A stretch of DNA of 64,000 nucleotides from contig CM119372.1 of the NCBI GenBank assembly GCA_051294905.1, positions 4,032,001-4,096,000 on the forward strand, read 5' to 3'. The notes under the pieces were generated by a model that saw only the letters and a list, made by a program, of their open reading frames with translations, did not search any database and was not told where the DNA came from. Positions 3,756 through 42,900 of this stretch are shown here, one piece after another (the stretch's first letter is position 1; every line of letters begins with the position of its first letter). This DNA is from Botryllus schlosseri. Lineage: Eukaryota. Position numbers and translations under genes: made by a program.

Positions 3756-4630
3756 TGGGATAGCATGGAGGGCTGGAGCATGACTTAGAAAGCCGTAAAG
3801 GCTATATCTGCACTTCCTTGTCCAGCGGCATATTCACATCATGCACTCATGGTATGCATATGCGCAGATCGTGTGTATGTGTATCATGAGTCGGTGTATA
3901 TGCCGCAAAACATCAAGGACAAAAATAAACTACGTCCTTCCTTCCTTCTTCCCACCGCCGAGCTTTATACAGTTCGAAGTTTACTATTCTTGACCCTTCC
4001 CACTACCGGTGACGTCGTGTTTTGTGATACGATTGTTGATATACAATGTTGTTTTTAATTATCCGCTATTTGCTGACGATTGCCCATGACGAGTGTCGAC
4101 ATTCGGGTTCACTTCAATATAATTGCCAGTATACTGGTGATCTGTTCGCATCGTTTAGTAGCATCGATTTAGAACAGCAATTCACTAACGACCTTCGGAA
4201 AGTAATCCGAGATTCCGAGGTTCATCGTGCTCACTGCTCGCTTTACGTAATGACAAGGTTCATGGTTTTCATTCAATGTCAATCCTATAAGGTCACAATC
4301 GGGGCACTTTCAGCTTTAAATGAATGTGGCAATGACGACTTTCAATCACTACCGTATTATGATGGGAATGGAACGCCGTCATAGCATAGCTTTAGCCATA
4401 GACAGCAAACAGCATATTGATGCCGAGCTGTGATTCACTTACTGATTCATGTTCTTGATATCATACTGCTGTTTTTTAGGCGTGAGATCAAAGGTAGAAA
4501 AGAGTTCGTTTACCGGTACCGATAAGTTCTCTGCCAGATTGGAATTGGTGGCAACGTCACGCGCAACTTTTCGTTCAACTATTGAACTAATTGTTCCATG
4601 CAACAAACCCTTCTGTGAGTGTCATGCTGG

Positions 4631-5852
4631 CAGAGGTGGTCAAAGTAGTCAAGAATGCTACTCAAGTAGAAGTAGAAGTAGCGACGAAAACATCTACTCA
4701 AGTACGAGTAGAAGGACTTTCTCCATAAGCAACCTAAAACTACTTGAAGTAGAAGTAGAATTGACCGACTTTAAAAGTACTCGCGTAAGTAAGTAGTTGG
4801 GAAAACGATCCTAATTCGTTCACATGGATTGTAAAAATTAGGTGCAAATTGAGCTATACGAAAGGTGACGAGCTTGATTCATATTGATGCATACCAGTAG
4901 GTATCCAATTTTCGATAGCATCATGGGATGAAAATGATAGTATTGATATGGAAATGCGATACTAATCCTCTGTTTACTCGAACAGCACGTTTTAGAAATA
5001 GCATGGTATGGCGCCATCCCCCATATTATAGCGCCCGTAGTTTAGTCGAAGAGCAATACGGAGAAGTTGTATAGCATACCGTGTAAACACTGTGCGCGAT
5101 TAGTAAACGTTAATAAAAGATATGGTGGACCGTAAAAATGCCAGCTTTATTTGCGGAAATTAAAGGCATTGCTACACTTGCTTTATACTTCAACATGTAT
5201 GTTAACCAGACAAAAGAACTGATAATAATTATTACTCAAAGTACATGATACTGGGAATTGAAAGTGAAACATGAATACTACTTATAAAAGCGGAACATGT
5301 AATTCATGCCTTCAGTCCAGAAAGTTTCAAAGGTGGTATGCTAAAACAGCTCTAAAACTAACAAAAAAAGTCAGAGTCCACTTTTCCAGGTTAGGACACG
5401 CCATGGACATGTTAAATTACGATATGACAAGTAAATGCTAGATGACGAAACATCAGATTCAGACGTTATGATGAGCCATATAAACTGAGATGAATTATTT
5501 CATATAGGCGAAATTGTATTCATCGATACTTTCGTGAAATCATACGGATCACTTCGTATCCACTGCGCGCGAAGCGCGACGAAAATTCTGGGCTTTACCA
5601 AACTTTTATGAAAATTAAATGTTGATAATCCGTAAAAACAGCCCCGAAATTCCTCAGGCTATCTTCCTGATCGGAAGATTGAACTACTTCTACTTGACAA
5701 ACTGAAAATAGCGAAAAGTGAGTAAGTAGATCACCAAATATCACGAAGTAGAAGTAGCGAAAATCAGATCTACTTGAGTAAGTACCACAAGTAGAGGAAA
5801 ACTATTTGAGTACTTCGAAAAAGTAGAAGTACTTCGTTACTGACCACCTCTG
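4631..5852. mobile_element. Non-autonomous hAT-type element (CAGAGGTGGTCA TIR)
   Basis: TIR CAGAGGTGGTCA/TGACCACCTCTG. 8-bp TSD CATGCTGG at 4623-4630 and 5853-5860. Subterminal AAGTAG repeats. No transposase ORF. Confidence 0.9.
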
Positions 5853-6887
5853 CATGCTGGTGATGCTGACTGCTGCTGCTTCATGGACTTGTGAAATACC
5901 GCATGATATCAGTAGGCTACTCTCCTCACTGTCTTGTATTCTTGCTTGGCAATATTTGACTGGACTTGTAATATTAATCACTATGTAAGGTAATGCTATC
6001 GACACCCAAATGCAAAATTTGAATTGGTCTCAATCAAAGGCAAATATCGCGATTCTGAAATGGTAAATTATAATTTGATCAGGGCACTAAAACCCCTCCA
6101 AACTTCTTGACTTAATTTTGTACTGTTGACTTTCGCTGTGTCTGTGTGCAACCCTGTAATCATTTTTTTCTCTTATTATGATTGATTTACTATAGGCCTA
6201 CTGCAACCAAATAAACTAGACTGGTGGCCTAGCGGTTCATTCATATCTCCATCACCCAAGCTCCTGTAACATTTTGAATTATAAAAAAATTGAAAGTTTT
6301 TTTTTCGAAATTTACTGACTAGCCTACCTCATGAAATTCTTACGTCTTCTGAAAATATGACGCCAAACTTGATACGACGCAAAACCCATAGAAGCGAAGT
6401 TACGAGTTGAAAATTTTGTATTTAAAAACATGATGAAGAAACTAAAAATAACTCAACTGGAAGTGCGTATGTCTATATATAGCGCATGAGACAGCCCAGT
6501 ATGGAATCGGTGTCCACGGCACGCAGGATCACGCCGACTTGGTCGCCAGTTGCACGCCGTCACGGGTCGTTGATTTTATTTTATTTTTTTTTCAAAAAAG
6601 TCAATGTTCTCAGCCACCCCAAATGCTATATTCCAGTTAGTATGTGGTATATAATGTTGGTAAAGTACTGTCTGTTGGTAAAGTACTTGCACCTTGCCAG
6701 TTGCTAACCATTAGCATCTGATCTCCTGTCACTGGTTAAACACAGTCATTTGAAAGCAGTAACCTTGCTTGTAACGCTGCAAAGTTGACTCTGTCACGCG
6801 AAAAAAGCTCCTATCACGCAGGATTTATTTAAAAAAAAGGACGGAGATTCCATACCGGGAGACAGCAGTTCCATGGTCTGTGTAGGC

Positions 6888-7335
6888 TAGGCTTACCATA
6901 CGTCCTCTTTTAAGAGGATTTGTCCTCTTTTTTGACTTTTTTGAAAGTGTCCTCGGAGGACGCCCTTTTGTCCTCTTTTTTGAGATTTTGTCCTCTTTTT
7001 TGAGATTTAGAGCAGTTTTAGAGCAAATTGCGAGTGATATGCCGCATATTAGCACAGAAGTGAAGCTCCGACGGGTATTGCGAAGTGAAAAACGGTGATT
7101 TTAGCTCTGAGCGAAAAGATGACCTTTTTTTTTTTTTTTTTAGTCATCCACCTGGCAATGTGGATTAAAAAACGTTATTTTGAGCCCTGAGCGGAAAAGA
7201 TGACCTTTTTTTTTAGTCAACCGATCACAAAGTGGGAAAAATTAACCGGTTTTTGAGAATTTCACTCCGGTTTTGCAAGTTGCAAATTTCTGAAAAAGTG
7301 TCCTCTTTTTTGATTTCCAAAATATGGTAAGCCTA
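6888..7335. mobile_element. hAT-type MITE (TAGGCTTACCATA TIR) just upstream of citrate synthase
   Basis: TIR TAGGCTTACCATA/TATGGTAAGCCTA. 8-bp TSD GTGTAGGC at 6880-6887 and 7336-7343. Internal GTCCTCTTTT repeats. Confidence 0.9.
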
Positions 7336-7458
7336 GTGTAGGCGTGCTCACAATTCTAAGGATTTTCGCTTTCTTAAGTGTTCACAAAATGATGAACAGA
7401 AACATTACACTTTCAGAATCTAGGTAATACTGCAGTGTAGTTTTTCCCCAAATTTGTG

Positions 7459-9918
7459 ATGTTCTCGGAAAAAGCTGTTACCCGTCTTTTCCCATCACTA
7501 GTAAAATATGGAGCTATATCCAGATCGTACAGCGCCGCGGCCTCTACCAATTTGAAAGAAGTTCTCACAAACATGATCCCGGAAAAGCAAAAAGAAATCA
7601 TGGAATTCAGGAAAGAATACGGAAGCGCCAAAGTTGGCGATGTCAACGTAGACATGGTCTACGGCGGTATGAGAGGTATCAAAGGTATGGTATGGGAAAC
7701 GTCTGTGTTAGACCCGGAAGAAGGTATTCGATTCAGAGGTTACAGCATTCCGGAATGCCAACAGCTTTTACCGAAAGCAGAAGGTGGTTCGGAACCTATA
7801 CCAGAAGCACTATTTTGGCTTCTAGTGACAGGTGAAGTACCAACAAAGGCACAAGCGGACGCGTTGAGTAAAGATTGGGCAAAAAGGGCTGATTTACCAC
7901 AACACGTTGTCAACTTATTAGATCAACTACCAAGCAATGTTCATCCAATGTCCCAACTAAGTGCCGCGATTACTGTTCTCAACACAGAGTCGAAATTCGC
8001 AAAGGCCTACTCTGAAGGAGTTAACAAGAAGTTATACTGGGAACTGGTGTACGAAGACGCAATGGACCTGATCGCTAAACTGCCACCAATCGCTGCCAAG
8101 ATTTACCGCAATTTGTACAGGGATGGCAGTCCCATAGGCACTATCGATGAAAACGCGGATTGGTCTCTCAACTTTTGTAGAATGCTTGGTTACGATAACC
8201 CCGGATTCATCGAGCTTATGCGTCTTTATTTGGTGATTCACTCTGATCACGAAGGAGGCAACGTCAGCGCGCATACTTCGCATCTCGTCGGCAGTGCGTT
8301 GAGTGACCCGTATTTGTCTGTGGCTGCGGCAATGAATGGACTCGCAGGACCTCTGCACGGTCTTGCAAATCAAGAAGTCTTGGTCTGGTTGACCGGTAAG
8401 TAATTTAGTCGATTGTAATCATTGTCTTCTTTAGATGATGTTTTGTGGAATAATCTACAAGCCTTTATCAGATTGTCGGACTCGCTAGATGTTTTCAAGC
8501 GTGAAATCAAAATCGTTTCATTTACTCGTGCTATGGCTGTGTTCATTAGCATTGTTCAAAAACAACTTTTTTTTGGGTAAAAGTATTAGCTGTGCTAATG
8601 AACGCCACACAACAAATTTGACTCAATTCCAACCTTTATTAAAAAATGATTTGAACAGCTTCTTGGAGGTACATATCTTCGTATATTCATATTGAAATGA
8701 ACCCGATTCAGCCGAAAATATTCAGGTTCATTTCAATTTGAATAAAAAAAAGAATTGAAAAAAAAACTTGAAATTGTTGAGCTGTCGAAAAAACGACGCA
8801 TAGCAATTTTGGCTCAATTCCAACTAGTGGAAGCAAAGTTATTGTTGTTGGATTTGAAATTATAGGCTAGTATTTACGGTGGTCAGTTCTAATCAGTAAT
8901 TAAAAAATTTTCCACCATGATTACTAGTATTTTCAGTCCACAATTTTGTACTCAAATAATTTAGATTCTACCGGTTGAAATCGGGCCAAATTTGCTATGC
9001 ACTGTTTTGTTGCAGACAACCTGATAATTTCATGCGGTTGCCAGCAAAATTTCAACAACAAAAATTATTTTGGGACAACCCTACCCTATTGATCGATCAT
9101 TCTTTCCCTACAGCAACGCAATCCCTCTTTTATACACAAATACATATACTTTTTTGATTTTATCACCCTTGTGTAAATTGCTGTATTCGTCGCTCTATAA
9201 ATTATAATATCAACTGATCGAATAATGTATTCATATTGAAATGAAAACAACTATTTTTTGCTGACACTTGTCAGGGGTAATTGTCAGCAACTAGTAAAGA
9301 AATAGAAATAACATTGCCCAATTCTCTGGTAGATGCTGATGAATACCCCTGACGAGTGTCAGCCGATTATATTCCGGTTTATTTCAACATGAATACAATA
9401 TCGAATTGTATATTGAAGTTCTGCACCGTCGAACAGCTCTTCAACTAACTGATTTTCATGCAGGTGTCGCAAAGGAGCTTGGCTCTGCCGAAGTGTCTGA
9501 TCAACAACTGCACGATTACATCTGGAGCACGCTGAAAAGCGGGCGGGTTGTGCCTGGTTACGGGCATGCCGTTCTCCGCAAAACAGACCCCCGCTACACT
9601 TGTCAAAGAGAATTCGCATTGAAGCACTTGCCGGATGACAAAATGTTTAAGCTCGTGGCACAAATTTACAAGATCGTTCCGGATATTCTGCTCGAGCAAG
9701 GAAAGGCCAAGAACCCGTGGCCGAATGTAGATGCACACAGCGGCGTTCTCTTGCAGCACTACGGCATGACCGAAATGAGTTACTACACCGTACTCTTTGG
9801 CGTCTCGAGAGCGCTCGGGTGTCTGTCTCAGTTGATTTGGAGCAGGGCGCTTGGTTTGCCGTTGGAAAGACCAAAATCTATGAGCACGAGCGGTCTGATG
9901 CAGCTTGTTAAAAAGTAA
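7459..9918 (+). CDS. CS: Mitochondrial citrate synthase, 463 aa, 2 exons: 7459-8395, 9464-9918
   Basis: Hallmark motifs [49 protein letters not shown] and [11 protein letters not shown]. Basic/Ser-rich N-terminus resembling a mitochondrial presequence. Phase-1 intron GTAAGT...CTAAC...CAG joins LVWLT-G-VAKELG in frame. Confidence 0.97.
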
Positions 9919-11260: not shown

Positions 11261-11696
11261 CAGGGTGGTGATGACTCGACTGACAATTCTACGGTGACTC
11301 GACTAAGTCTTTTGACTCGAGACTGGGCTGGCCAAGAGAGACATTTCGTTGTAACTTCAAAGAATAGTAAGCTACCACATTACATGTACTTCGTCTATTA
11401 GTACTGGTTTTGTAAAATGGGGCCAGAAACTTTGAACGGTGAGGAAAATTAATGTGCTATGAATGGGAGGCATTGAACATAACTAAAACATAGTTGTAAA
11501 AAGTGACTTGAAAAGGATTGAACTCAAAAATGAACGGTGACCCGGACTCAAGTCTCAACACCGAGACTAGGACTCTAACCTTTGAAGCCTGACTTAGAGT
11601 CGGACTTGGCTCGGTGGTGAATTGAAAATGACCTGACTTGACTCGATTCAAATTTCTATAAAAGTAGAATTGACTTGTGACTAGGCTACAACCCTG
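11261..11696. mobile_element. Degenerate copy of the CAGGGTTGTAA / GACTCGAGTC MITE family
   Basis: Ends CAGGGTGG...ACAACCCTG. Similar to the intact copy at 46451-46990. Confidence 0.65.
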
Positions 11697-11873
11697 AATG
11701 TAGGTCTTGAAAGTACTCGAGTAGTTTAGAAAATAGAATAGGTTGATGGGTGACCACTTTTGAAATTGTGAGATTTATCTACATTTTCACTATGAAGGTG
11801 ACACAGACAAACTCCGAAGCTACTTTCTACGCAAGTGGAAGCAGTCTATGAGTATGTAAAACATTATCTTAAC

Positions 11874-14800
11874 TCACTTGGTGGAAGCGCCCGATGTGAA
11901 GTTTTGCAAACTCCCTTTCTTTCTGATCTGCGATTGCGAAGGAGGTATTGCTTTCGGTCTTGTTCGGTCCGACACCCTGCCCCGAAACAGCTTTATAAAA
12001 TCAATTTTTGAGTTGTCTTGAGATCTCTGCGGTTGAGTCTGCGCGTCGGTCGTTTCTGTTTTATCCTCGTCCATTTTGAGACGGATTGGGGCGTACAAGT
12101 TGAACCATTGCTGTGAAATATTTGAAACTAAGTGTCAGAAGTGAAGAACACTACAAAAAGATATCCAGACCTCAACACAGATGCTACACTTGATAAATCT
12201 AAATAGTAATCAATGGCACATGCAGGAAAGTCACCAAAGTACTGGTGATTATATCTGCTTACATTTGGCAACAGTATTAGTATCAGTTTAGTAATAATTA
12301 CATCAAAATCATCAATTCAAAACACCACAAGACTACGACATAATGAAATGATAGGAAGGTGCCGAAACGGCTTGGAGCAGTGTTTGAAATCAGACAACCA
12401 CCTCGGCCTAGGCGATGTACATGAGGCGTGCACGCTGGATGGAAGGAAACAAGTGATAACACACAACCAACTGGTGATGAAAATGAATGAGACATGTGTC
12501 GATAGGCGAGGTTGATACGTCAGGTTGCAGTCGGGTCATCTTGAGGGCTGACTAGTATTCATTCAGTAAAAATTGCTTGTATTTCACCTAGAATGTGGAT
12601 ATACTGGTGATTATATCCCCAAGACCACCAAAGTTGACATGTTCCTAACACGAAACAAGTATGGCTGCAGCAGCATTGCTACGGCAGGGGATGATGAGAT
12701 CAAAATCACACTAATACTGATCTTCATTATCTGTATTGTTTGTATGATAATACAGTACTACTCCTTGTCGCTTCGACATCTTCCTGTCTTTTCATTGTAT
12801 CGCATTTTTGTGGTGTATTGAACTGATAAAATTGCTAATAAACCAATGATGATGATACTAAAATATTAAAACAATGAAAATGTATAAAGAACATCCCAAT
12901 ACAAATATCCATCTCAAAAAAGTCACTGTTTAGCGATACCTCCAAATTAATGTTTAGCAGTACCTTCAAGAGTCAATTTTTGTGATGGATTCACATCACG
13001 AAGGCCTGTACTCTATTCAAAAGCTTTGACAATACTCATTTCAAGTATGCCGAACACAAGTATGATCCACACAGCCAAGTCGATTATAACGGTATTGAAA
13101 ATAACCTTAGCCGTGGAGCTCAATCCCAAATTGGTCAGTGCATATTGCCATTGAGGCAAGCCAAGATGCATCAGCATGAGTCGGTAGTAAGACGTGAAGT
13201 CCTCCGACAGAAAATGCCATTGTAGCGAGCGATCCATAAGCCAAATTTCCGGCTTATGGGCTGGCAAACCTGTGACATAACAAGCTTCCTGTTAATATCT
13301 TGATCCATCTTTTCTGTTCCGATATTTAGACATCAAGTCGCGTACGTATGGCTTTACCTTAAGATATGATCCACTATCTTTATTGACTACTGTAACCACT
13401 TCAGTAATGTACATCTACAATACGTAAAGCTGAACAAGCTTACTGCTAGCTAGGTCTTACCGGGGCTTGTATTCAAGTAGACAAGACATGCCTTTCCGTA
13501 ACCTTGGCACGAGTCAAGTTCAAATATCCTGCTTCTGTTATCAAAGTGTGGAACACTTCTGCGTTTAGTATTTTCTGGAAATAGACATTCATAAATTAAT
13601 GTACTATATTCCGAAAAGTATCATGTCGACATTATATAGTTTTGACTCGAGTCAAGCCGAGTCATTTACAATTCACCACCAAGCCAAGTTCGAGTCCGAG
13701 TTGAGACTCAAGTCGAGTCAATACACAAATCAACTCAAGCCGAGCCAAGCCAACGTAAAACTCCGACTCGAGTCATTACAACCCTGATTTTCGCATGAAA
13801 AACTCTATGTAAGAATATTCTCAAAGTTACCAAAACTTGCTACCTTCATCGTCACTACTGCTGTCATCGTCACTGCTATGATCCATTTCGACATCAGCAA
13901 GGGAAGGCGTATTGGCGAGCGACGATGTAGAGCCAGAAGCGTTTATCTTCACCAAGCGATTGAAGGAATTAATCTCCATTCTTCCAACCGGGAACTTGTT
14001 ACCTAGAAAAAATGCTTATCTTCATTATCCAATAATCATCATGAAGTGTGATAGTGATACTACTCTAAAAATGCATACCGTAATACTGTATTGATATATT
14101 TTTTTATCGCCATGAAGCAAAGAAGAGTAGCATATCGGCTATTACTCATAATTTCAATAGATCTGGAGTGTATGAGTACTGAGTAGATTCTTATGCCGGG
14201 TTGTAATGACTCGACTTGCGTCATTTTATCAAATGCGTAAAATGACTCGACTCGAGTCAATTTTTGTATTGCCTCGACTTGTGCTCGAGTCATTGTACAT
14301 GACTCGAGGCTAGGACGGCCAAGACAGACACTTCATTATAATTCGATGTATAGTAAAGTTACCATACTGCATTATTGGTATCTCGTCTATCAGCCTGATA
14401 CTTGGAAAATGCGATCAGAAACTGATAAGTCTGAGGAAGATTACTATATATGAATGCGAGCCATTCCATATCACTTGAGCAGAGTTGCAAAAATTGGGTT
14501 GAATCGATTACTGAACAGTGAACAACATGAATCGGACTCGAATCGCAACACTATGACTCGTACTCAACCCACTACTAGCTGACTTGGACTTGACTCGGTG
14601 GTGAATTGAAAATGACTCGAATCAAAGCTAAAAAAGTGAGATTGACTTGGAACCTGGTGACTACGTTACAACCCCGTTTTTATCCTTCTGAAATTCTCCA
14701 ATATTGGCTCGAAAAAAAAAACGGGGTAAGTTTGCTAAATAGAGCAAGTTTTCAGCTTTACCAAACTAGATTCGAATAAGAAGTATTGTTACACATTTTT

Positions 14801-26100: not shown

Positions 26101-29100
26101 AACGAGGGGTGCCCCAGTTTCATCAAGGTCCGGGAGCCTGACAGCCAGAAAAAAGACGCCCCCGAAGAGGTCCAGTCACCCCCTGCCAAACGCCGTAAAA
26201 CTGCCGACGTCTCGAAACCGAAAAAAAGCACCATCGCGCAAGATTTCGTGTTGGGCAAGCCTCTAGGCATGGGAAGGTAAGTGATGTAATCACAGGTTGT
26301 CAGTAGGGTTGTTTAAAAATAACATTTTCTAGTTGGCAGATGTTGCACATCAAATTTGGCAATTCCAACCAACCTGTATATGTGTACATTGTGTAGTTAT
26401 TAGGGTCAAAAATTTTGGAATTTATTTCAAAAAATATGAATTTATTTTCAAATTTTTCTGGCTACCCCATAAAATTGTTACGTTGCCGTAAAACAATGCA
26501 CAACAAATTTGACTCATTTAGAACTTATTGGAGTAAACAATTTTTGAAAAAAATAGGGTTTACCGTACGGTGCGTAATTCGCTTCTACGGGTTGGAAGTG
26601 AGCCAATTCTGTTATGCATCGACTAAGACATAGGTGTTGTAGCAAGCCTGAAAAATCGTGTTTTCATTTCAGCCCCGAACTGACAAGGCTGTGGGAGCTG
26701 TGTCCCGACAATCTGGCCGCTTGCAAGTCAGAGAAAAGAAGCTTTCTACCCACTTTGGAAGGTTTCTTTGCCGAGGGCATCGAGCTGATGGATCCGAAGA
26801 ATATGGTGGAAGAAGAATACATGTCAGTCTACGTTTTTCACGTTTATTTTTTTGTTTGGTTGCTTGTCGATTTGGTCACTGCTACAGACACATACTTGAA
26901 GAGCTTCTTGGAGGTGCACAACTTCAATATACAATTGAAATGTATATTAATATTGAAACGAACCCGAATATTTTCGGCTGACACTCGTCAGGGGTAATCA
27001 TCAGTGGCTAGTAGAAAATTGGAAAAAACATTGTATATCAACAATGGTATCACCAAATATTACGTCACCGGCATGAAATTTTGAATAATTGGGGTGAACA
27101 GATGGCTTGAGCTCAATGTAGGCTACTATTTTTAATGGTACACAACTCCTTCTGTTGGCACAGACTACCTTGTCATATTTTGATTAAAGGCAGTTGTAGA
27201 ATTGTGCAAGCGATCATGCAATTAGCAACGCCTATTCGTCTTTGTTCGCAGGTCTTACAACGATCCAAACTTTCAATGGCGGGCGTTAAGGCTACTGTCG
27301 CAGAGAAGTCCCTTGTTCTTTGCAAGCCAACCTGCGCAAATGCAGTTCAAGGTCGTCTCTCAATACCTCAAGGGAATAATGAAGAAGCTGTCCGAAGAAT
27401 TCCCGGTACGTTACCGTCGATTCTAGTATTCGCATAAGATGCCACTAAGGCAGTGGTACCTAACCGAGGCTCCCCAACCAGTCCCAGGGGTTGGAGCGCC
27501 TGTCTAAAGTACGATTCATAGCCAAATAGCGACCGTTGCGTTGGCACAGCCAGCTGCACTGCATTAGGGTTGGGCACAATGATACTCTAATCTGAAGCGA
27601 GTATTCATTCTAACGGTTCGGGTCTAGTCGTGAGATGGTTTTTTTTCTAGTACTGAAATTATAAGTTCCCTGCCGTTAAGAGTTAATTAATCGACAAAAA
27701 TTATAGTTTCGATTGTATTTTCCTCTGCGGAAGGTTATAAACCTCAATTGGTCGTATCGCAGCATACGAAACATGCATCACAAAGCGACAATTCACCTTT
27801 AATGTGATATAAAACTGGCATGGGGTATTCTTTGTGGTGACATATCAGGTGCATATTTTAACTTCTCCCATCTTTAATACCGTTAAGACTATTGCGGGGC
27901 AAAATCGAGCGCCTGACTGATTTGAGAGTCACTCATAATGATATCATAACGGTATGAATGATGTGGGATGCTTAAATATGTTCCTTTTGTTCGACTGGAC
28001 AGAATATAATGCCATTTATACATCACATAGATTGGCTGATATTTTTCGATCATGCCTATTCAGGCGCGTAGATAAGGAGGAGGCATTGAAATGAAGGGAG
28101 GGGTTTCGATTTTTTTCAAATTTACTAATAGCATCAATTCATCAGGGTTAAGTACATGCGTAAATGACAATTATGCAATCTCCTCGTGTTGACGATTATA
28201 CACGTATGATAAGCTTGTCGACGAGTCCGGAAGTGCAGTTAATTAGCGAGTCCCTGATCTGTTGCGACCAAATACGCGCGCTTATCAATGTCCTAGTTTT
28301 TATGGAATATGTGCTGTAATGATGCCGATTTCAGGTGGTTCAAACCATCCCTCTTTTATAAAGGCTGTATCAGACGAGGCGATGCCGGCGATGTCGGCCG
28401 ATAATTTCTCTACCATCATGTGAGAGATCGTTGCACTTGATTAGTTTCAGAAGGCGTTGACCCGTTGCATTTAAACCTGCTCGGGGATGATTGACATCTG
28501 CGAATCGGTTTTTTGTTGTTGTACAGGTCAGGTACACTGTACTGTGCAACGTACATACTACCGTATTATGATCAGTGATGGGCGGATAGTGATTTCTGAG
28601 AATCCGAATCCATCCGACAGCTCAAAGCTCTGATGAGCAATCCTTCCGAATACCCATGCAAATCCGAAAAATCTTGTCCATAATCCAGAAAATCCGAACA
28701 GAATAAATATTCCGAAGAATCCCAATTGTGCAGCGGAGCTAGATACATTTAGGGCCTAGAGTTGGCTGGTTTATATTTGCTTGGACCTTTGACAAAACAA
28801 CTTTAGAGTGCTACCAGTCCTATAGCAAGGGGTACACTGTCCGTTTTGGTTGTCGAGCTGACGATTTTTTTCTTTCGACTTGAAGTCAAAAGTCACGTCT
28901 GGTCAAAATTATCCGGAAACAAAGTTACAACTAGCCGAAAATATTCGAAACTAATTCTGCAATATGGTTATGATGTCTGTCCAATGTGTTCATGCTGCAA
29001 TGTCTTGTCGAATGAAACCTTCTCTGAACCATGGTAGTATGGTATTTGTAAGGGTAGGTCAAAAAAGTTGAAGGTGGCACGAGTTTTGACTGTCATGATA

Positions 29101-32100: not shown

Positions 32101-32514
32101 ACTGACCACCGGTGTAAAAACATTCACCTTCTGGGCCTGAAAACTGTCGAGTGAAAGCAGTCTAAAACAGTCGTTCTGAATCTTTTTGACCTCTCGGTAA
32201 AACTTCAAAACAAGTGTTGCGGGGACGGTGAACCTTCAAGAATCAAAATTAACTCCAAATATACGATTGCGACAAATGTATGCTACCAAAACGTAATGTT
32301 GGAAACTTCATTTAATGCTGCCTTTTTGATATTTATACATCGTTCTATTGAAGTTTAAGCAAGGCAAATCTTGTGTCTTCTGTGTGCCTAGGCCCGCCAG
32401 ACTCTGGTGACATGGCAGGACCGGAAAAAAGAGAACGCCAAACGACCCGCGCTAGTGCAAGCACTGACCAAAGCCGGCATGGAGGACTTGGCAAAAGAAT
32501 TTGGCGGCAATTGA
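17105..32514 (+). CDS. THOC1: THO complex subunit 1, ~748 aa, 16 exons: 17105-17149, 18910-19144, 19916-20053, 20689-20825, 21396-21512, 21571-21680, 23142-23244, 23303-23379, 23881-24015, 24074-24191, 26062-26276, 26673-26822, 27252-27405, 30062-30287, 31029-31192, 32392-32514
   Basis: Motifs [87 protein letters not shown] and WRALRLL. C-terminal death-domain-like segment ([14 protein letters not shown]...LVTWQ). All junctions GT-AG and phase-consistent, total 2247 nt. Exon 1 is the least certain. Confidence 0.95.
18105..18731. mobile_element. Palindromic (foldback) element, P/Galileo-like, 7-bp TSD
   Basis: TIR CATAGTGTCCTATATGGTGTCGACAC with ~250-bp inverted arms. TSD ATTTCAA at 18098-18104 and 18732-18738. 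Splits a copy of the GCCTAGGC retro-repeat. Confidence 0.85.
20088..20660. mobile_element. CAGGGTTGTAA / GACTCGAGTC MITE family copy with duplicated left end
   Basis: CAGGGTTGTAA at 20088, second left end at ~20214, right end TTACGGCCCTG. Confidence 0.7.
22120..22682. mobile_element. CAGGGTTGTAA / GACTCGAGTC MITE family copy
   Basis: Highly similar to 46451-46990. Ends TTACAACCCTG. Confidence 0.8.
24211..24916. mobile_element. CAGGGTTGTAA / GACTCGAGTC MITE family copy with duplicated left end
   Basis: Left ends at 24211 and 24350, right end TTACGACCCTG. Reverse complement of 46451-46990. Confidence 0.8.
25535..26035. repeat. Degenerate ~35-38-bp minisatellite (AATGACTTGACTCGAGTCAAAATTTGCAGTGACTCG)
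   Basis: About a dozen diverged tandem units that share the GACTCGAGTC motif with the MITE family. Confidence 0.8.
26962..26995 (-). ncRNA. Minimal type I hammerhead ribozyme motif (Penelope-type) in a dispersed repeat
   Basis: Minus strand reads ACCC-CUGACGA-G-UGUCAGC-C-GAAA-AUAU-UC-GGGU. This gives stem I ACCC/GGGU, an intact core, a 1-bp stem II, a palindromic AAUAUU stem III and a UUC cleavage triplet. Confidence 0.65.
28362..29467 (+). mobile_element. PIF/Harbinger deletion derivative
   Basis: TIR AGGCTGTATCAGACGAGGCGATG. 3-bp TSD TAA. Internal remnant [16 protein letters not shown] (~29120-29170) resembles the N-terminal RxWVxP motif of Harbinger transposases. Confidence 0.8.
29690..29890. 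repeat. ~50-bp degenerate tandem repeat, about 4 units
   Basis: Repeated AGGCC..TGCAGATGCGATTGTGTAGGCCAGC...GCGCACC units starting at ~29701, 29752, 29802 and 29841. Confidence 0.7.
31427..31962. mobile_element. Old palindromic MITE
   Basis: CTAACCTACGGAT... pairs with ...ATCCGTAGGTTAG. Arms stay complementary to a centre near 31690. No clear TSD. Confidence 0.7.
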
Positions 32515-33915
32515 AATATCTTGGATTTATGCCGTGTTTTTTGATACATTACATAATGACGATCGTCGTGTTCTTGTTGTCTCTGGCTGAATGTGGTGGA
32601 TATTGGAGGCACAATTCATGATGTTCGGTTTTATTTAATTCATTATTAGTTGCGACGCATCTTCTGTTATCAGTACCTTGGCGGATTACAGCGAGCACAG
32701 TTGAACACTTTAGTTCAGTAAGTTCAGAGTCATATATTCTCTCTCTGTACTGGAGCACCGTAGGGTTAGAGTCTAGTTATTGCAGGAGGCATGATGTATA
32801 ACTAGGTAAGGCACAAAGATTTCAGTATTAATTGTAATGGTATGAGTAGAAAAGATGTTTTCATTAATAATATGTATTTCCAATGTGGAAGGCTTGATAC
32901 CTCAGTTGGTCGAAGCACAACATAGTACAAAGCCATGCACGTGATTAGAACCTACATAAGTACAATGAAATAGGGTTATAGAACTGGAATTATTTTCTCT
33001 CTGGTCCCATGAAAGGTACATAGTGGAACTCATCATGTCATCCAGATTCCTATGAGATACTTGGACACTAGACTCGACGGTAATTACTCAATATCGAATC
33101 ACTTAGGTGAGAGTACCTATGTATAACTACGGTTGCCATCGACATGGATCTAGAACTAAGGACAGGCGAAAACTTCGATCACCCTAACTGCAAAATTTGT
33201 GAGCTGATGACTGAATAAATAGTCCAGACTTTCGCCCAGTGCTTATCACGGCCTGATTACCTTAAATAAGACAAATTATAAGTAAAAATCTTTAAAATAT
33301 GGACGGTTTGGCAACTCCAAGTATAACACCTGGTTTGGAAACGCATTTCATAACGGTGCAAATTGTTTTCCAAGCAACCCTATCCACGAACTAGCGGGCT
33401 TACTTTTGGTCGAACATAAGATTCCTGACCAGTTGATAGTTGTGAACCATTAATGATACAGATGCACCATTCTGACAAGGCTTATTTCGTAAAGGTTGTG
33501 GTTTTTACGTGAGCAAGTGTCTGATGATGTAGTACAATACGAAATTGATACATAGAGCAATGAAAAACAAATCTTTGAGGATTCTGTCTCCTGATTTTAC
33601 CCCAATCACTTACGGGGATGGAAGAAATCTGCGGGTAGGATTCAACGTGCTTCAAATACATCAACTGATTGGAGATTGCCCCCAGCGAATAATACTTGAT
33701 GCGGTGAATTGACAAGAAGTGCATGATACAAGGTTAGAAAAATGGCTTTGCGCACAGTGACATGGGAAACGGTACAGCAAAATTAATAAAAGTGATGTCG
33801 GAGTTAAATAGAAACACAGCGAAATCTCAATAGACTAATACTAGATTGAACTTGACGTGAGGCTTCATTAATGCGCTCGATGGGAGCACATGTAGTCTTG
33901 AAGGGGTCTTCCTGG

Positions 33916-36900
33916 TCAAAAGATAACTCCGCTTTCAATATGCAGAGAGTGAAGCTGGTTGGAAACTGACAATCCGTCGTAGACTCCAGGACCTTCATTA
34001 AAGATGTTTTCCTCATCCATATCGTCATCAGTTATTTCCCTGTGCACACGATAAATGAATATGTGAATCGCCGAGGTCACAAAATAGTCGGAGAGGTCAA
34101 AATTGTTTTTCACTCTCAGACTACAAAATGACAGTACAACGATACCGCAATTTTGAAGTCAGCAAATTTAGAGGCAAAATTGCCTCAGTCCATCCCATTT
34201 ATGCTCATGGAATGGGTTTTAACTTGGATGAAATGCATTGATAGACATATGATATTGAAGGTTTTGTAAGAGAGAGAGAGAATCTTTATTCGTATACATT
34301 ACATATCAACGTTACACTACAAAAATGTAACAGTGAAATGCGACATGCAAGGTAGACGGGAGGCTTGACATGACAAAGTCTTCAGAGCCGAGCCACCCAG
34401 GACAGGAGCAATTTTCACAGTTGATAACTAATGAACAAAAAAAAAAATTAACTAACGAACGAAAAGACAAATAAGACACAGTATCATGGACCAATTCGAA
34501 ATACAATGCAAATACAATTTAGCCGTAGTTAGAGATAAGGGAATGAAAACATTGTTTTTTAAATGCACAAGAGTCTAAATTGCGGAGATTAGGTGGCAGC
34601 TTGTTCCAGACATTGACACCAATAAAACTGATCGAATTTTGTACTAGACTGGTAGAGTGGTGTTGCACAGACAGAGACAAGTTAGAAGAAAATCTGGTAT
34701 GATGTTGGTGGGTGACCTATCGATCTCGCTTCCCATGACATGCCGCCCTATTTCTTGTCGCTTTCTTTTTCTATACTATCTTCTTTACTTTCATTCAGTG
34801 TGCATGTCGCCTCTTTACATTGCCTAGGCCAGTGGTTCCCAACCGGGGGGGAATTCCCCCCTTGGGGGGAATTTTGAAATTTTTAGGGGGGAATCTGGCT
34901 TAAATTATTTAGGGGAGATCTGGCTTTGGCATTGTATCGGAAGATACTCTGGGTTCACAAGGTTTTTAGATTTTTATGGTATGGAACTGTTAAGTAGAAA
35001 TTAGTTCTTTACAATTGTATATTTCTTTGGCGGATTTAAAGCTAGGTGTATGTTTAAATGCCTTCCCTATATATTACACCCCCTGATAAAGTGAGGCTCA
35101 CGAGACGATTTCGTTGGGTCCGGACAGCCTCTCGAACCAATTGCTACTAAGCAGGAAAACGTCAAGTCGAATTCAGCACAAGGTCGCTAGTGAAATTGTT
35201 CAACTTTTTAAGCCAACATATGAGCTAACGTGAAAAACATACCGTACCAAATTGATCGATTCAAATCAAGTCAATAGCAACCGGACTTGGTGATTTATTT
35301 TTCGTCAGCGGCTACCCGACCGGTCAAAATCAGTTGAAATTTGACTGTACTTTTCCAAAGTTTAGTGCGGTCTGTATTCGCCATAGTTCGGACATATCTG
35401 AATATGTTTGGCCATTAATTGCTCAGTCAGCAAATGGTTGCGTGTTAAAAAGTACATTTTTTTAGTCACAGGCAACTTTTTCATAGGGGGGAATTTTAGC
35501 TCAAATATTGGCCAAGGGGGGCACGAGACGAAAAAGGTTGGGAACCACTGGCCTAGGCCAAGGTGGGTGTCCGATTCCATAGACAACTCTTAGTCGCTTC
35601 AACATCTTCCTTTCTTTTCGTTGTATCGCATTTTTTGTGGTGTATTGAACTGATGAAATTGCTAATAAACCAATGATGATGATGATGATGGTATCTGAAG
35701 GTATCTTGAACAGATTATCAAAATATAGTGGCAGTTCACCCTGATGATAGCTATGCATAAATTTCATAACCTCAAATTTGAAAATGTCTTCCACTTTCAT
35801 TATTCCAACGCTTCGATACATGCTATTACAATTTTCATATCTAGATTTCCGACAGAGAATTCGTATGGCTCGGTTTTGCAAGACTTGCAATTTCTGCAGA
35901 TGTTTTTTTTGCAGCAGGTCCCCAAACTAGGATCCCATAAATGAGATAGCAGTGAATTAAGGCATAGTAGACTGATCTGAGAGTTTGATGAGGAATTAAA
36001 TTTTTAAGGCGATAGAGAGCCCCGACACCATGCGAGATTTTAGTTTTTATATTGTTGATATGATCAGACCATCCGAGTTTATCATCAATGATAATGCCAA
36101 GATATTTAACAGATTTATGTGTACCAAGACGTGCGTTATTTACTATAATTTCACTTCGATTCGCTTGAGTACGAAACACGAGAGTTTTGGTTTTGAAGGC
36201 ATTGAGCTGAAGTTGGTTAGATGCCATCCATTTTGACACTGTCGATAGCTTAGTGTTAATGTTGTGAAATGCATCAGATAAATTTTGAAGATTGAATAAT
36301 ATATTCCTATTGAATGAATCCGAATATTTTCGGCAGACGCTCGTCAGGGTATAGTAGAGAATTGAAAAGAAAATCGCATATCTACAATCATTTGGTGATA
36401 CGATTGTTGATATGTGATGTGATGCTATTGTCAATTATCTACTAGTTGCAGGTATTTTTTTACAGGAATATATCATTATTCAATTGAACATTGAAGTTCT
36501 GTGCATTCGTGATTCTCTTATTGTAAGATGAGGCCCATTCATGTAAAATGTTATTCATAAGATAAATGAAACAAGTTGGAGTGGTCTTTGAAATCAGACA
36601 CCCACCTTGGCCTAGGCGAAGTAGAGAAGCGACATGCGCACTGAATGAAAAGTAGAGCAATACAAAGCAAATACAAAAGGACAAGCGACAAAATGAGGTG
36701 GCATCAGACGGAATGCGAGACCGGTATGTCAGGTCGTGATCCGGTTAACTTGAGGGCTGACTAGACTGTCCAAATGTCCACGGACATCGGACATATGAGC
36801 ATGCGATACAAAAGCATGCAACATTCAAGCATGTGGGTTAACGGTAGGGTTGGGGTTAATTCTGGGGTTAGGATTTTTATAATAACACGCTCAACTGTCG

Positions 36901-39900
36901 TTAATCAGTGTGTTGCATGCTCAAATGTGGGGTAATCGTTTATATATGTTGTAAAAGGAGAATAATGTGACCAATGCAGGCAGATCTCATAAATTCTTCA
37001 GGCACGGTGTTTCTGACTTACGGTTCAGGCGATGTTCTGTGAACAGACTCTCTCGACACTGCCGAATGAATTCTGCTCATCTTCTTTTCATACTCGTCTT
37101 TTTTGGCGTAGTGCTCCTGATATATCTGCAAAAAGCGCGACTTGAAGGAAAATCGTATAATATGTTCATATTGAAATAAAACCGAATATTTTCGGCAGAC
37201 ACTCGCGGGTAATTGTAGTGGTAGCTCTATGGCGCCACTAGGGTGTGACGACATCGCAGGTGCTTCGGTGCTTGGTCGGCACTGAATACATGGCTGCTTG
37301 AGAACTCACGTCTCGTATATTAGACAGACCGTCAGTCACGTTACTACAGTAATCGTGAGCAACTAGTAGAGAATTGAAAAGAACATCGTTTATCAAGAAC
37401 CTTATCATCAAAAAGACTTAATTTTAGAGGAGGCATATTGATGATTTCATTTATAGCAACGACACAAATCTATCAGTACACAACCCTATTTTTGGCAAAA
37501 TTTGAAACGCTGAAAGCACGTGGGACTACACAATTGTTTAAGTAACCAGGGGTCAACCCGGATTAACTGTTAAAAGTATGCGACCCGTCGGCCAAATTTA
37601 CTTTTTGAAACTATATACTTCAGTACTTTCTTCATATCTGCTTCCAATTGAAGTAATCTTGAAATTTCTACTTCTACTTGTAATTGAGTAGTAATTTACA
37701 CCGTCACTTCTATTTCTGGCTGCTGAATACTTTGATCGTCTCTGGAAGCAACACAGGAGGTAATCTAATAACAGAATTCTAACCCGATCAAACTTAACCA
37801 AGCAAAGGAATTCTGCATGATTGGTTCGTAAAGGTAGATATGCATCTAATACATTCTAACGACATTATGCATTTGTTGTAAGCATCAAACTGACCTTGTT
37901 AAGTTGATCCTTCAGTTGTCTTTGCCTGCTCGGACTCGGTGTGAACCCTTCGCTCTTTTTGGAGACTTTACCTTCTGGTTGAATTCCATGGCATGAATAT
38001 ATCGTTGGTTGTGAGACCTGGCAACAATAATGATTATACGGATTGTAAAGTACCAGTAATCAGGGGGTTCATAATCTGAGGCTTGTCTTAAGTACGATTG
38101 ATCATTACGATGGTATGGTACCAATATATGAAGTTATCAAGTCGCGCTGCTCTCTACTACATAAATTAAAGCATTAAATAGAGACACATATGCGATATTT
38201 CCACACAAAACCAGCATAGCTATTGAAACCAATTAAAAAATCATTGACTCACAATAATTGTGGCACAACACAATACAGTTTCCGCATCACTTTGTATGGA
38301 AACGAATGGGATAAAAGTTGGCCGTGTTGCCACAATAACACTTTGTAACAGTTATCTTACATTATCTTTTGTGTTATAGCGCTTTTGTTGTACAACAAGG
38401 AAACTTAAGATCACTGAAATCGCACCAGTTATTTCAGGTCAGTTAACATATAACAGAGGCTTTTGTTGAAATGAAAGATTACTTTTATAGACAAAACGCG
38501 CCGCATACATACCGGAACTCAGTAACAGTAAGCTCTTGAGTATGCTGTCTGACTCTATGTGGAACGGATTGTATGACCCTTGCTGATCCTGTGACTTCAA
38601 TACATATTCAATCTTGAAATAGACCTTTCAAATTGTTACCTAGCTGAATGTCGACAAATGGTATCAAACTTCAACCATACAGCATCTTTGATTAGTCTTT
38701 TTCGTGTTATAGGTCAATGATTTCTCTGGAACCACCTCTTCGAGTGCAACATGTTTTGCTGACGATTCGCTCATGTACATCTGTCTATTGCTTCAAGTTT
38801 GAAAGCCCTGACCTGCGATCAAATGTCAAAAGTACATAAATAGATGTCTCATATCTGGAGCTAGACCGATATCTGTCTTAGTAGAAATATTGGTATCGGC
38901 TAACTCCAGTGTAAGTCTGCCAACTACTATTATTGTTTGATATGATAGGATCTGCAGTACTGTTAAATTGACTGATGTCTATCGATCTTGTTTTGTACAC
39001 TACAACGTAAGCTTAAGGGATGGGAAGTACAAGTTTCTTAGTCAGATGGAGTATAATTGTAAATAAATGAAGCATATTTATCAAATTACGACCACAAATG
39101 AGCAGGCCAAGTAGAAAAATATCACATTTTATTATTGGCAGAGAAGGTCGGCTTATCAGCGAAAATATATCATAATGGAATGGGCTCAAAATTGCGATAT
39201 CGATCAAGCTATATTCACAACAGGCTTTATTTGAACAGATGAAAAAATATATAAATAAATGAATGAATTTCGTTACCTAAAACTAAAAACACTGTGTGAT
39301 GAGAAATGTGTACTGATTGCTGTTAAATAAAAATAATGTTTTCCTGACAACGTGAAACTGTCACACATAGAAGCAGACATCCAAACAATAGACCCAAAAA
39401 TTAAAATGTTTTCTCCTCCTAAACACCAATTGCTACTACAATCCCATACCTGCTTATCTTTCTGAATTTTCAAACTAAACCACATCTATATATCATCCCT
39501 TGATTCAACTGTGTTTACTGGATTGAAGGATACTCATTAAGATAAGCTCGATTCGACAAGAAATACTAGAAAACTTATGCTATGCAGTGTAGCTACACTA
39601 TTGACAATTTTCTGTTGTGTCACAGATTATTGTGTGGCGAGAAGGCTTGTTCAGATTCAACTAACATGATATATCATTGGTCAGATTGAAATAAAAAATC
39701 TTACTTTGACGGGTTCCAGTGGTTTCAATTTTGCTTTTAATAACCTCCCTCGTTTTCTGTCATCAGATGGAGGCGCATCCAATTTGCTAATTCCTCGTTT
39801 CACCTTGGAAACCGTGAACGCCGTCGTTAACCGAAGCTCATAGCCGGGTCTCACCATATCATCCTGTCAAGACCAAAGAATCAGTAGGCTATCAGTTTAT

Positions 39901-42900
39901 TAATAATTTTCCTCATTTCAAAATGCCACAAGACTGCGATATAACAAAGAGATTGGAAGGTGTCCAAGCGACTCGGAGTTGTTTTTGAAATCGGACATCA
40001 TCCTAGGCCTAGGCCAGAGGTGGGCAATTATTTTGCTCGCGGGCCAAATGAAAAGCAGAAAATACGCTGGCGAGCCAAGTCAAAAATGTTAACTATATTC
40101 TGCGGCGTTATATTTGTATTTCTAAGAAGAAAGCAGTGAATTTCATTGTTTATACATGCTGCTCAATGGTAAACATGATCCACTGTAAACTCTTTTTAAC
40201 CCACATACATGTTTTTCTATTGAAACATTAAAATGTAGTTAGGATACTGCAAATATTATCTTGGTCGCTGCCTCCCGAGTAATGTGTAGCTTCCTGAAAT
40301 TCCTACTTGTTTGTGGAAACTAGCAATGCTTCCGAAATTCGCACTTCCTTAGCCGACTGATTGACTTGTTTTACGAATTAGGGATGTGGAAACGTATCGC
40401 ATAACAATATCTAAATGTGACAATGGCAATAAAGAAGGTTTGAACTGAACTGTATGGAAGCAGTGACATGTTGTGACTTTAATTGCTACGTAACACTTCC
40501 GTGCATTGGCTTTATTTTGAATCTGGATTACTCGTACGATTACGTAGGCTGACCAGTGTCAGCCGAAAATATTCAGGTTCATTTCAATATGAATAGACTA
40601 TTCAATCGTATATTGCGGTTCTGTACCTCTAAGAAGTTCTTCAAATGTGTAAGTTCATTACGTAATGTTACTTGAAGAGCTTCTTGGAGGTACAGAACTT
40701 CAATATACAATTCAATACTATATTCATATTGAAATGAGCCCGAATATTTTCGGCTGACACTCGTCAGGGGTAATTACTTGAGAGAAGAATGCTGATCACA
40801 GATATTGTTGCCGAATGAAAAAGCCACTTAAAGTCCACTTAATGTCTAGAGAATATCAATTTCCTCTCTTCAACGATTGCCTTATACAAATAAGCTGTTA
40901 GAGCATTTCAATTGTGTGAGAAAGTTAAGTTGATGGAATATATATCAAGTTGAGAGATCTGTAAATATTAGACTACTCAGAGATCACTTTCTACACATAA
41001 AGTAACCATTTTTGTAGATAAACTGAAACATGTTTCTCTAACGCTAGAGATACTCAAGGACTAGGAGTTGATCAATACACACGAGAGTGTTTCTACTTAC
41101 AATTATTTCCCCCAGTTTGTCTTGATTCATCGTGACGCAAGGGTATTGCTTGAACGGCATTTTAATGAACATATTCGCCTTTTTATTATGTTCCATCTCG
41201 TATGTTTCGTCTTCTCGCCACCTTGAGGAAGTACTGCTGACAGCCCTGCTGCTGGCAACTCGATTTTTAGCTGTCCATATGATTGATTTGGTAAGATGTG
41301 GTACGGTATTCCTGTGAAAGTATTGCTGCTTTTTATTGACAAATCCAACCATCCACAAATTCAATACCATACAATTGAATAGTATATTCATATTGAAATA
41401 AACCCGGATATTTTTGACAATAGTCAGGGGCAATCGTCAGCAATTGAAGAGAACTGGATATCCAGTTTGATATATAGCCTACGTCACTGCCAGACAGTCA
41501 TTATAACTGGGTTTATTAAAGTATAGTCCCCATAGTCACTTATTAGTACATTTATATCACATACCAGATTACGTTTGCGTAACTGATCTATGGTGAATAC
41601 AACAACTATGTCTCAATAAAAATACTTGGGAAACAATATCCGTTTATTTTAATAATTGTATATTGAAGTTATGTTCCTCCAAGAGTATATAAGAAACTAT
41701 ATCGATATAAATTTCAATCTATTAATCAAAATCTCAATCATGTTCAACTTTAACTGAGCTCATCAACTTTTTTACATCTATTTAGTTCCCAAATAACTCT
41801 CTCTTTCAAAATGTATTCTCGTCCATCGAATCATGTGGAATCAACTCCATCTTATATCACATCTCATCAAGTGCCCTTACAACGATTAAACGGTGTAACG
41901 ATACAAAAGATCAATCCAGCAGGCAGGAACATGTCACAATATTTATATCTGGATTCTTGAATAGACCATTACATGTATTTTTGGCATAATTGGCGTCACT
42001 GAATCACTGACTTTTGTTTCATTGTATCGAATACATTGCCCCTGCCACAAAATTTTGTGAAGCATCAATTGGTACCCAAAACAATTTACTAATTGCGATT
42101 TCTATTCATTAAATCATAACTTGTGTCACAGAATCACAGATCCTACATAATAATTATTTTATCATGTTCGTATCGGCGTTACAATATTTATGTACACAAT
42201 TGATACATTGTAATAATTATTTTATTGTGTTCATACCAGCATTACGATATTTATGTATTCAACAATTATGAGAAACATAATCCTATATATTGTTGGCGTA
42301 TTTAATAAAAGGTATCGAGTACCAGAACAACTTACGCTCTCTTTGGGTATATTTGCACTGTCGGGTCATCCAACAGACCCATCTCGCTTTCAGGCGCGGT
42401 TTGAGGGTGATTTTCATCAGGAGGGAACTCGTTTACGATGACGCCGGGTGATACCTGTGGAATAGTGAATAGCTGGATAAAGAAATTCGTTGCAGTAATG
42501 TTAATTGACTTGGGACTTTTCAAATTTGGAAAGTGCAGGAAAGCTTTGAAAATCTCCTTTTTGTTGGAATATTACATAGTAAAAGCTATAAAAACGAAGC
42601 CCAGTACTTTATTATGCACTGCGTATGCTATTTAAGTAGGGCTGAGCAAAATTGAGGACCTGAATGATTCGATTCCGAATAGAGTATTAGCCTAAAGCCT
42701 TCGAGTCGAGTATTTGAGCATCCCTTATTTAAACATCACAACAGTATGAATAATGTGGAAAGTTCAAATATGTACCTTTCATGCAGCTGCAAAGAATATA
42801 ATGCCAGCTCTATATCACATCTAAGTAAAAGCCATATATTCAATTACAAGTTAGTAATCGATGCATGCTTCCTTGTAGTGGTAAATCTCTGGGATTATAA

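Follow-up and report, generated by a model that had tools for sequence, protein, structure and literature searches.

Copies, extent and abundance of the repeat

A 64,000-nucleotide stretch of Botryllus schlosseri DNA (assembly GCA_051294905.1, contig CM119372.1, positions 4,032,001 to 4,096,000 of the forward strand; hereafter the window, numbered from its first letter) was analysed for a dispersed repeat which carries a hammerhead ribozyme motif and is a candidate derivative of Penelope-like retroelements (PLEs). The family comprises 14 arms in about nine insertions between positions 4006 and 41684. An earlier note on this DNA had listed about ten related copies of a repeat of ~190 bp. All ten stretches proved homologous in blastn and nhmmer searches with the 26860-27100 copy as query and in the alignment, and four arms were added to the list: those at 8708-8745 (+), 36390-36524 (+) and 41619-41684 (+) lie beyond it, and the 37 kb copy consists of two pieces, 37153-37214 and 37349-37412. 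Identity in the core region between window copies averaged 79% (range 66-95%, 36 pairs). The length given earlier was too short, as homology extends to ~27120 and the family measures at least about 225 bp. The copies had also been placed in the introns of three genes; this holds for a citrate synthase gene and for THOC1, while the third gene is suggested only by exon-like frames. The longest copy, on which the description of the family is based, is

26896..27120, minus strand: ~225 bp, tailed, hammerhead core complete, antisense to THOC1 within one of its introns (from homology and contig depth)

All genome-wide statements on the repeat rest on one alignment of contigs and reads from four runs to this 27 kb copy. 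Of the contigs from a DNA run of this species, 16,871 aligned at 80% likeness, and summed contig depth reached a peak of 1.9 million, compared with 25 in the unique flank, a value which is not a copy number. The repeat is thus very abundant in sequencing runs of the species. On the 5′ side of the 27 kb copy, contig depth dropped in steps until ~27120-27130; it was ~100-fold lower at 27089-27101 than at the core and near background past 27130. In an open reading frame (ORF) lying over a second copy elsewhere, homology started at the same point, 27120, and the sequence upstream differed.

The hammerhead core

The motif of the 27 kb copy is made up as follows.

26962..26995, minus strand: type I hammerhead motif (from sequence)
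26995-26992 with 26965-26962, minus strand: stem I, ACCC with GGGU, 4 bp
26991-26985 and 26975-26972, minus strand: core CUGACGA and GAAA
26984 with 26976, minus strand: pair G10.1-C11.1, enclosing loop II at 26983-26977 (7 nt)
26972-26967, minus strand: palindromic helix III AAUAUU, followed by C17 at 26966
26999..27005, minus strand: second copy of the core, upstream, complementary to loop II and predicted to pair with it as a pseudoknot

All catalytic positions were present in three of the nine copies which span the motif (C3 at 26991, 40767 and 36347, each on the minus strand). These are the copies whose cores had been called intact before, at 26962, 40738 and 36318, and the predicted cut between 26966 and 26965 had likewise been placed correctly. 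Stem I has 4 bp only in the 27 kb copy, 3 bp in the 40.7 kb copy and 2 bp in the 36.3 kb copy. The core is broken in the remaining six copies, and one copy only has kept the core together with most of the predicted pseudoknot. The family majority, however, keeps every core position plus G10.1-C11.1, stem I and the palindrome. The complete core sits 70 nt upstream of the 3′ end of the repeat.

A relaxed descriptor (stem I of at least 4 bp, core, G10.1-C11.1 and palindromic helix III) gave one match in 24 Mb of simulated sequence, or ~2e-5 per 200-nt family, a rough figure resting on that single match. In a metagenome control, stem I fell short of 3 bp in all 34 matches to the same core and helix III. 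The hammerhead core is therefore very unlikely to have arisen by chance. Pattern scans for relatives yielded none in viral contigs and none in prokaryote genomes.

A scan of viral contigs for classic minimal hammerheads found three loci, from a reading of the motif only. The phage-type viral records L035 (4001-4038) and L036 (4001-4039) contain minimal type I hammerheads which have a long helix II and no real helix III and resemble the PLE consensus. One match to a U3-A8 core variant was seen at 22420 of the window (minus strand); it has a 4-bp stem I, lacks a paired helix II and is probably due to chance. The upstream CUGAYGA of the repeat was rejected as a catalytic core, as it lacks stem I.

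Helix II and the predicted pseudoknot

Helix II consists of the single pair G10.1-C11.1, with no unpaired base after A9. A tiny helix II had been taken as the PLE norm in the earlier note, which is at variance with the published motifs. PLE hammerheads were described with a larger than usual helix II, of 3-8 bp in 56 of 56 motifs (Cervera and de la Peña 2014, PMC4209133), and helix II has at least 3 bp in all 34 rows of File S2 of Craig et al. 2021 (PMC8557442).

Loop II has its complement 13 nt upstream, in a repeat of the core. With the family-majority sequence of that strand, GCUGACG, the helix would comprise six Watson-Crick pairs and one wobble; the strand of the 27 kb copy (26999..27005) has one mismatch and one extra wobble. 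At the two sites where this copy deviates, 27000 and 27005, the majority base accounted for 93% and 90%, respectively (run X1). By chance alone, loop II would have a flush Watson-Crick partner of 6 bp within 20 nt in 0.4% of cases, and the figure for the 6-7-bp complement is 0.4-1.5%. Topological reasoning suggests a classic H-type pseudoknot, in which a 6-bp helix would be stacked on the G10.1-C11.1 pair and crossed by a single linker base. As the upstream strand is itself a repeat of the core, loop II can pair with the catalytic core too, and a 5-bp hairpin of this kind was found in the minimum-energy fold of both best copies. The upstream partner (7 bp) is longer than this inhibitory hairpin and prevailed in the fold of the 9.3 kb copy. 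The unusual point of the motif is a 1-bp helix II whose loop is predicted to form a pseudoknot with an upstream core repeat. Literature searches for this architecture in a PLE, or for hammerheads of ascidian PLEs, found no instance of it; their coverage did not extend to Lunse et al. 2017 (PMC5785218), the most extensive survey of small PLE hammerheads, which could contain it.

Insertion anatomy

The optional tail of the longest copy and the remaining copies, with their flanking duplications, are listed below.

26896..26933, minus strand: optional 38-nt 3′ extension (PLE-type tail), weak hairpin
4006..4123, plus strand: single copy without tail, core broken
8651..8706, minus strand: left arm of a head-to-head pair, tailed, start adjoining the cut site, in the citrate synthase intron
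8708..8745, plus strand: right arm of the 8.7 kb pair, without tail
9219..9316, minus strand: left arm of a head-to-head pair, without tail, core broken
9318..9444, plus strand: right arm of the 9.2/9.3 kb pair, tailed, GAAA box broken
9212-9218 and 9447-9453: 7-nt duplication flanking the 9.2/9.3 kb pair
36291..36388, minus strand: left arm of a head-to-head pair within an old reverse-transcriptase remnant of a long interspersed nuclear element (LINE), tail-less, core complete, stem I 2 bp, upstream repeat deleted
36390..36524, plus strand: right arm of the 36.3/36.4 kb pair, hammerhead deleted, tail degraded
37153..37412, minus strand: single copy interrupted by an insertion of ~135 bp (pieces 37153-37214 and 37349-37412), tail-less, core broken
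40549..40644, plus strand: 5′-truncated copy beginning at C3, tailed, G8 changed
40672..40773, minus strand: 5′-truncated copy, tailed, core complete, upstream repeat lost
40668-40675 and 40774-40781: 8-nt duplication flanking the 40.7 kb single arm
41354..41455, minus strand: left arm of a head-to-head pair with a gap between its arms, core broken, tail limited to its first ~11 bases or fewer
41619..41684, plus strand: right arm of the 41.4/41.65 kb pair, degraded, most of the tail kept

Summed contig depth fell from 268,906 to 1,455 across position 26896, and heterogeneous loose ends (of low agreement) were found there in all four runs, indicating that the 3′ end of the repeat is fixed. The 5′ ends of the window arms were ragged and fell at 10 or more different positions. 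Four insertions (8.7, 9.2/9.3, 36.3/36.4 and 41.4/41.65 kb) are head-to-head pairs with the 3′ ends outward. In all four the outer ends of the arms are unequal and do not form symmetric terminal inverted repeats (TIRs), which argues against a TIR transposon.

A probe made of the last 38 bases of the 40.7 kb copy was used, with the best of 3,000 random windows as threshold, which 6 of the 12 other arms exceeded; the tail is accordingly present in seven of 13 tested arms and absent from six, and each head-to-head pair has exactly one tailed arm. Of the tail-less arms, three (9.2, 36.3 and 37.2 kb) end only a few bases from the tail boundary, two end short of that and one retains ~11 tail bases. 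The fold of the tail hairpin was no more stable than those of shuffled sequences.

Junction duplications of 7-8 nt flank three of nine insertions (null expectation 2.2% per insertion); a second boundary tried for the 27 kb copy gave a 6-nt duplication and was excluded from this count. The earlier statement that no signature of TIRs or target-site duplications is visible therefore does not hold for the latter. Among the 15 contig joints listed of 113, nine join opposite strands, four skip and two go back, the last two each seen in one or two contigs. The inner junction at 8706 is the only copy end which coincides with the predicted cut site, and no head-to-tail tandem array of the repeat was found within the window. 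An origin from a tRNA-derived short interspersed nuclear element (SINE) was rejected, as pattern searches found neither an A nor a B box in the 27 kb copy and no tRNA gene was found in the window.

PLE copies have been described as strongly 5′-truncated, with an inverted truncated copy next to them and a tail of 30-40 bp, often at one end only (Craig et al. 2021, PMC8557442). The tail has been traced to two sites, both downstream of the hammerhead, at which reverse transcription starts (Frangieh et al. 2024, PMC11167929). The anatomy of the insertions follows this published pattern, and matches neither that of a miniature inverted-repeat transposable element (MITE) with TIRs nor that of a tandem retrozyme.

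Coding sequences and RNA reads

A Pfam search of 133 of the short frames of regions 1-7450 and 30400-44600 gave no PLE domain. The upstream open frame P0121 matched only P0124, a 72-amino-acid ORF over another copy, and the frame downstream of the hammerhead matched only P0123, which is also an ORF over another copy. The 60 codons of the frame over 27004-27183 are uninterrupted by a stop, and the frame contains a short motif which we take to resemble the end of a PLE endonuclease, a likeness confirmed by no search.

In two raw RNA runs 2,764 and 8,561 reads aligned to the repeat. Most of them continued into unlike sequence (98% in the bulk run and 76% in the other), as would passengers in host transcripts. 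Reads in the orientation of the hammerhead strand were 2.7 times more numerous in the single-cell run, which a few expressed loci could explain. None of the listed records containing the stretch is registered as RNA, a finding which speaks for neither side. No going-back joints from the RNA runs were seen among the 15 of 113 joints listed, the libraries being ill-suited to small circles.

Origin of the repeat and possible activity of the hammerhead

Taken together, the repeat is probably the truncated 3′ end (pseudo-long terminal repeat, pLTR, and tail) of a PLE, copied by a Penelope reverse transcriptase (RT)/GIY-YIG endonuclease encoded elsewhere. The link to Penelope and the hammerhead motif proposed in the earlier note hold, and the link is strengthened by the insertion anatomy. 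Formal PLE membership and any ribozyme activity are inferred; the window copies themselves are decaying passengers. In the mechanism that we envisage, based on published PLE work, the PLE protein would nick AT-rich DNA, and reverse transcription would start at either of two RNA sites ~38 nt apart, leaving tailed and tail-less ends. Priming on both target strands may produce the head-to-head pairs, and early termination of reverse transcription the ragged 5′ ends. In the master RNA two motifs would pair through the AAUAUU palindrome, loop II would pair with the upstream core repeat in a 6-7-bp helix stacked on the lone G10.1-C11.1 in place of helix II, and the cut would come after C17.

A number of observations weigh against this picture. 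PLE RT or GIY-YIG sequence was found neither in the window, where no partner RT had been seen before, nor attached to any copy, and translations of the repeat matched spurious ORFs over other copies or nothing. Helix II lies below the 3-bp minimum of all 90 published rows (56 and 34), and a scan with the Rfam hammerhead models, a search of the kind suggested in the earlier note, gave no match at E values up to 5. The hammerhead fold of the monomer was predicted at +5 to +6 kcal/mol as against -10 to -11 for folds which bury the core, i.e. 16-17 higher in a model which does not include pseudoknots, and the predicted fold of the dimer did not form the hammerhead. Covariation, also suggested as a check, was absent among the nine window copies (271-474 of 500 shuffles were as good), as is expected of decaying copies; for this reason the conservation of core against flanks, which the earlier note had proposed as a refuting test, tells little here. 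As to the anatomy, just three of six tail-less arms end near the tail boundary, a tail on one arm only in four of four pairs has a chance of ~6% by itself, one of the three junction duplications is an A run, and the boundaries of the tail (post hoc) and of the insertions (by eye) were drawn on these same copies. A separate pile of loose ends at 26934 was not seen among the 24 of 1,002 rows listed. Neither of the two raw RNA runs showed a pile of read starts or ends anywhere, the cut site included. This last is weak evidence, because no reads ending at the cut site were seen either for a PLE hammerhead which cuts in vitro (Frangieh et al. 2024, PMC11167929).

The hammerhead may also have lost its function within a PLE-derived repeat. 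It is quite possible, if short of probable, that it is a dead relic whose helix II was lost in the lineage, the complementarity of loop II to the upstream strand having arisen incidentally when the core, with which loop II already paired, was duplicated in tandem over 13 nt, and that the family spread without cleavage. The upstream strand is indeed a direct repeat of the core, the 5-bp hairpin between loop II and core occurs in the minimum-energy fold of both best copies, the window copies show no covariation and RNA no cut ends; moreover, an anole PLE with a mutated hammerhead is still capable of insertion in vitro (Frangieh et al. 2024, PMC11167929), and Naiads, which lack canonical hammerheads, spread all the same (Craig et al. 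2021, PMC8557442). On the other hand, a relic does not account well for a family majority which retains all core positions with G10.1-C11.1, stem I and the palindrome, nor for an upstream partner which outdoes the inhibitory hairpin by 7 bp to 5 bp and prevails in the 9.3 kb copy, and a hammerhead with a 1-bp stem II is known to be active (Perreault et al. 2011, PMC3088659). Between a dead relic and an active pseudoknotted ribozyme the balance is about even. A more elaborate version of the active alternative seems unlikely, namely that the repeat is a dimer-type type I hammerhead in which the pseudoknot replaces helix II and acts as a switch, with loop II either on the core (off) or on the upstream decoy copy of the core (on). 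Cutting would then depend on the length of 5′ RNA and on the PLE protein. The family carrying the motif would be short, non-autonomous, mobilised by a PLE and of very high copy number in an ascidian.

The other explanations concern the element itself. That the repeat has a true short non-autonomous master of ~225 bp, PLE-dependent and SINE-like, instead of being truncated from a coding PLE, is rather doubtful; it would be a sub-case of the PLE origin, and comes nearest to the idea of the earlier note. The ~100-fold fall in depth from the core to 27089-27101, with near-background values past 27130, would fit such a master, as would the second copy, whose homology begins at the same 27120 with a different sequence upstream, and the missing coding link. 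The same picture would, however, result if the 27 kb copy were itself truncated at 27120; this copy also deviates from the majority at six of 28 positions in that stretch, which shortens alignments, and the 60-codon open frame over 27004-27183, with its putative endonuclease-like motif, also speaks against such a master. It is very unlikely that the repeat is the arm of a foldback or TIR DNA transposon (MITE) with internal palindromes mimicking a hammerhead. The window is rich in MITEs, short palindromes are many and the four inverted pairs have their fixed end outward, but their outer ends differ in four of four cases, which a transposase-bound TIR would not tolerate, their inner ends are variable, an 8-nt duplication flanks one arm by itself and the motif is very unlikely by chance. 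A non-LTR retrozyme, whose tandem hammerhead repeats would be cut into single units that form circles and insert anew, is highly improbable. The earlier note had described the repeat as a retrozyme-like, ribozyme-processed and protein-free element, and a type I hammerhead with palindromic helix III in a non-coding 200-bp repeat which is abundant in RNA runs agrees with this, as do the two going-back joints among the 15 listed; retrozymes have also been proposed to derive from pLTRs and to leave monomers (Li et al. 2026, bioRxiv 10.64898/2026.07.22.740005). This description could nevertheless not be upheld, given that the window has no tandem array, head-to-tail joints are few, copy ends other than 8706 do not track the cut site, no read ends lie there and 98% of bulk RNA reads continue into unrelated sequence. 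Known retrozymes, furthermore, have canonical contacts between helices I and II (PMC7229834).

Other features of the window

At 7.4-9.9 kb lies the citrate synthase gene, whose best named match is its counterpart in Styela clava (85% identity), ahead of Ciona and Phallusia. One intron (~8397-9463) is visible between 7441 and 9918, and the first coding exon is very long. The exons of THOC1 lie on the plus strand from ~20.7 to 31.2 kb.

Several other repeats were recorded. At 35501-36744 and 44996-45978, old LINE reverse-transcriptase remnants on the minus strand gave weak RVT_1 matches, the first of them hosting the 36.3/36.4 kb pair. A nested palindrome with arms of 139 nt and 100 nt lies at 55070-55670, and the same family flanks the 8.7 kb pair at 8588-8825. 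A young 1.6-kb element at 1116-2733 has long inverted arms, which match over 434 nt at 99% and over a further 93 nt at 90%; a portion of the arm recurs at 22733-22924. The palindromic MITE-like element at 18105-18731 has 277-nt arms (94% complementary) and a short spacer with a 30-nt direct repeat; its CUGAUGA...GAAA string was rejected as a hammerhead, since it has neither stem I nor a palindromic helix III. A large repeat family of GACTCGAGTC-type units in both orientations, with internal tandem periods of 37-41 and 135 nt, occupies 11261-25906 and 46456-47385. At 56993-57834, inverted ends of 113 nt enclose telomere-like and C-rich tandem units of 24, 70 and 140 nt. An intact-looking LTR retrotransposon at 58073-61844 has identical 176-nt direct repeats around a minus-strand frame of 1,138 codons, in which protease-, RT-, RNase H- and integrase-like motifs were read by eye.

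Comparison with known systems

Dispersed single PLE hammerheads are already known, and the type of element adds little to them; what is new is only the structural variant of the hammerhead with its predicted pseudoknot. A 1-bp helix II with a pseudoknot lies outside the Rfam models and the descriptors of PLE surveys, which require a paired helix II. If the motif cuts, similar motifs have been missed, 'core only' PLE families such as the HHR_core Naiads (Craig et al. 2021) merit re-examination, and the repeat would be a small testable case for the role of the hammerhead in PLE transposition.

Most minimal hammerheads of the Cervera 2014 study (PMC4209133) are single dispersed motifs from truncated PLEs, some of them paired on opposite strands. 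The present copies are likewise mostly single and dispersed, with opposite-strand pairs 100-700 bp apart in that study's description. They share with its PLE hammerheads the type I form, the full core, a 4-bp stem I, G10.1-C11.1 and a palindromic, dimer-type helix III, which is of the same build as in D. virilis Penelope. In contrast to the 56 motifs given there, Ciona and Oikopleura included, helix II has 1 bp here instead of 3-8 bp, no bulge follows A9, a pseudoknot of loop II is predicted and no PLE ORF is linked.

With endonuclease-bearing PLEs (Craig et al. 2021, PMC8557442; Frangieh et al. 2024, PMC11167929) the repeat has in common 5′ truncation, the inverted copy, the tail at one end, AT-rich targets and a hammerhead less than ~200 nt from the 3′ end; unlike them, it is known only from its last 225 bp or less, and neither a tandem pLTR-ORF-pLTR copy nor an RT/endonuclease clade can be assigned to it. 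Non-LTR retrozymes form head-to-tail tandem repeats with canonical hammerheads and unit-length linear and circular RNA (Cervera and de la Peña 2020, PMC7229834; Li et al. 2026, bioRxiv 10.64898/2026.07.22.740005). The repeat resembles them as a short non-coding unit with a type I hammerhead and a proposed PLE origin, and differs in that tandem head-to-tail units, canonical hammerheads and unit-length RNA were not seen here.

A structural parallel is a type II hammerhead with a 1-bp stem II and a 6-bp pseudoknot, for which Perreault et al. 2011 (PMC3088659) reported activity above 1.2 per minute; the same study predicted pseudoknots in ~40% of hammerheads, of all three types. The combination of a 1-bp stem II and a 6-bp pseudoknot, predicted in the present case, is the same in both. 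That example is, however, metagenomic and of type II, whereas the repeat described here has a putative type I ribozyme with a dimer-type helix III and probably belongs to an animal retroelement.

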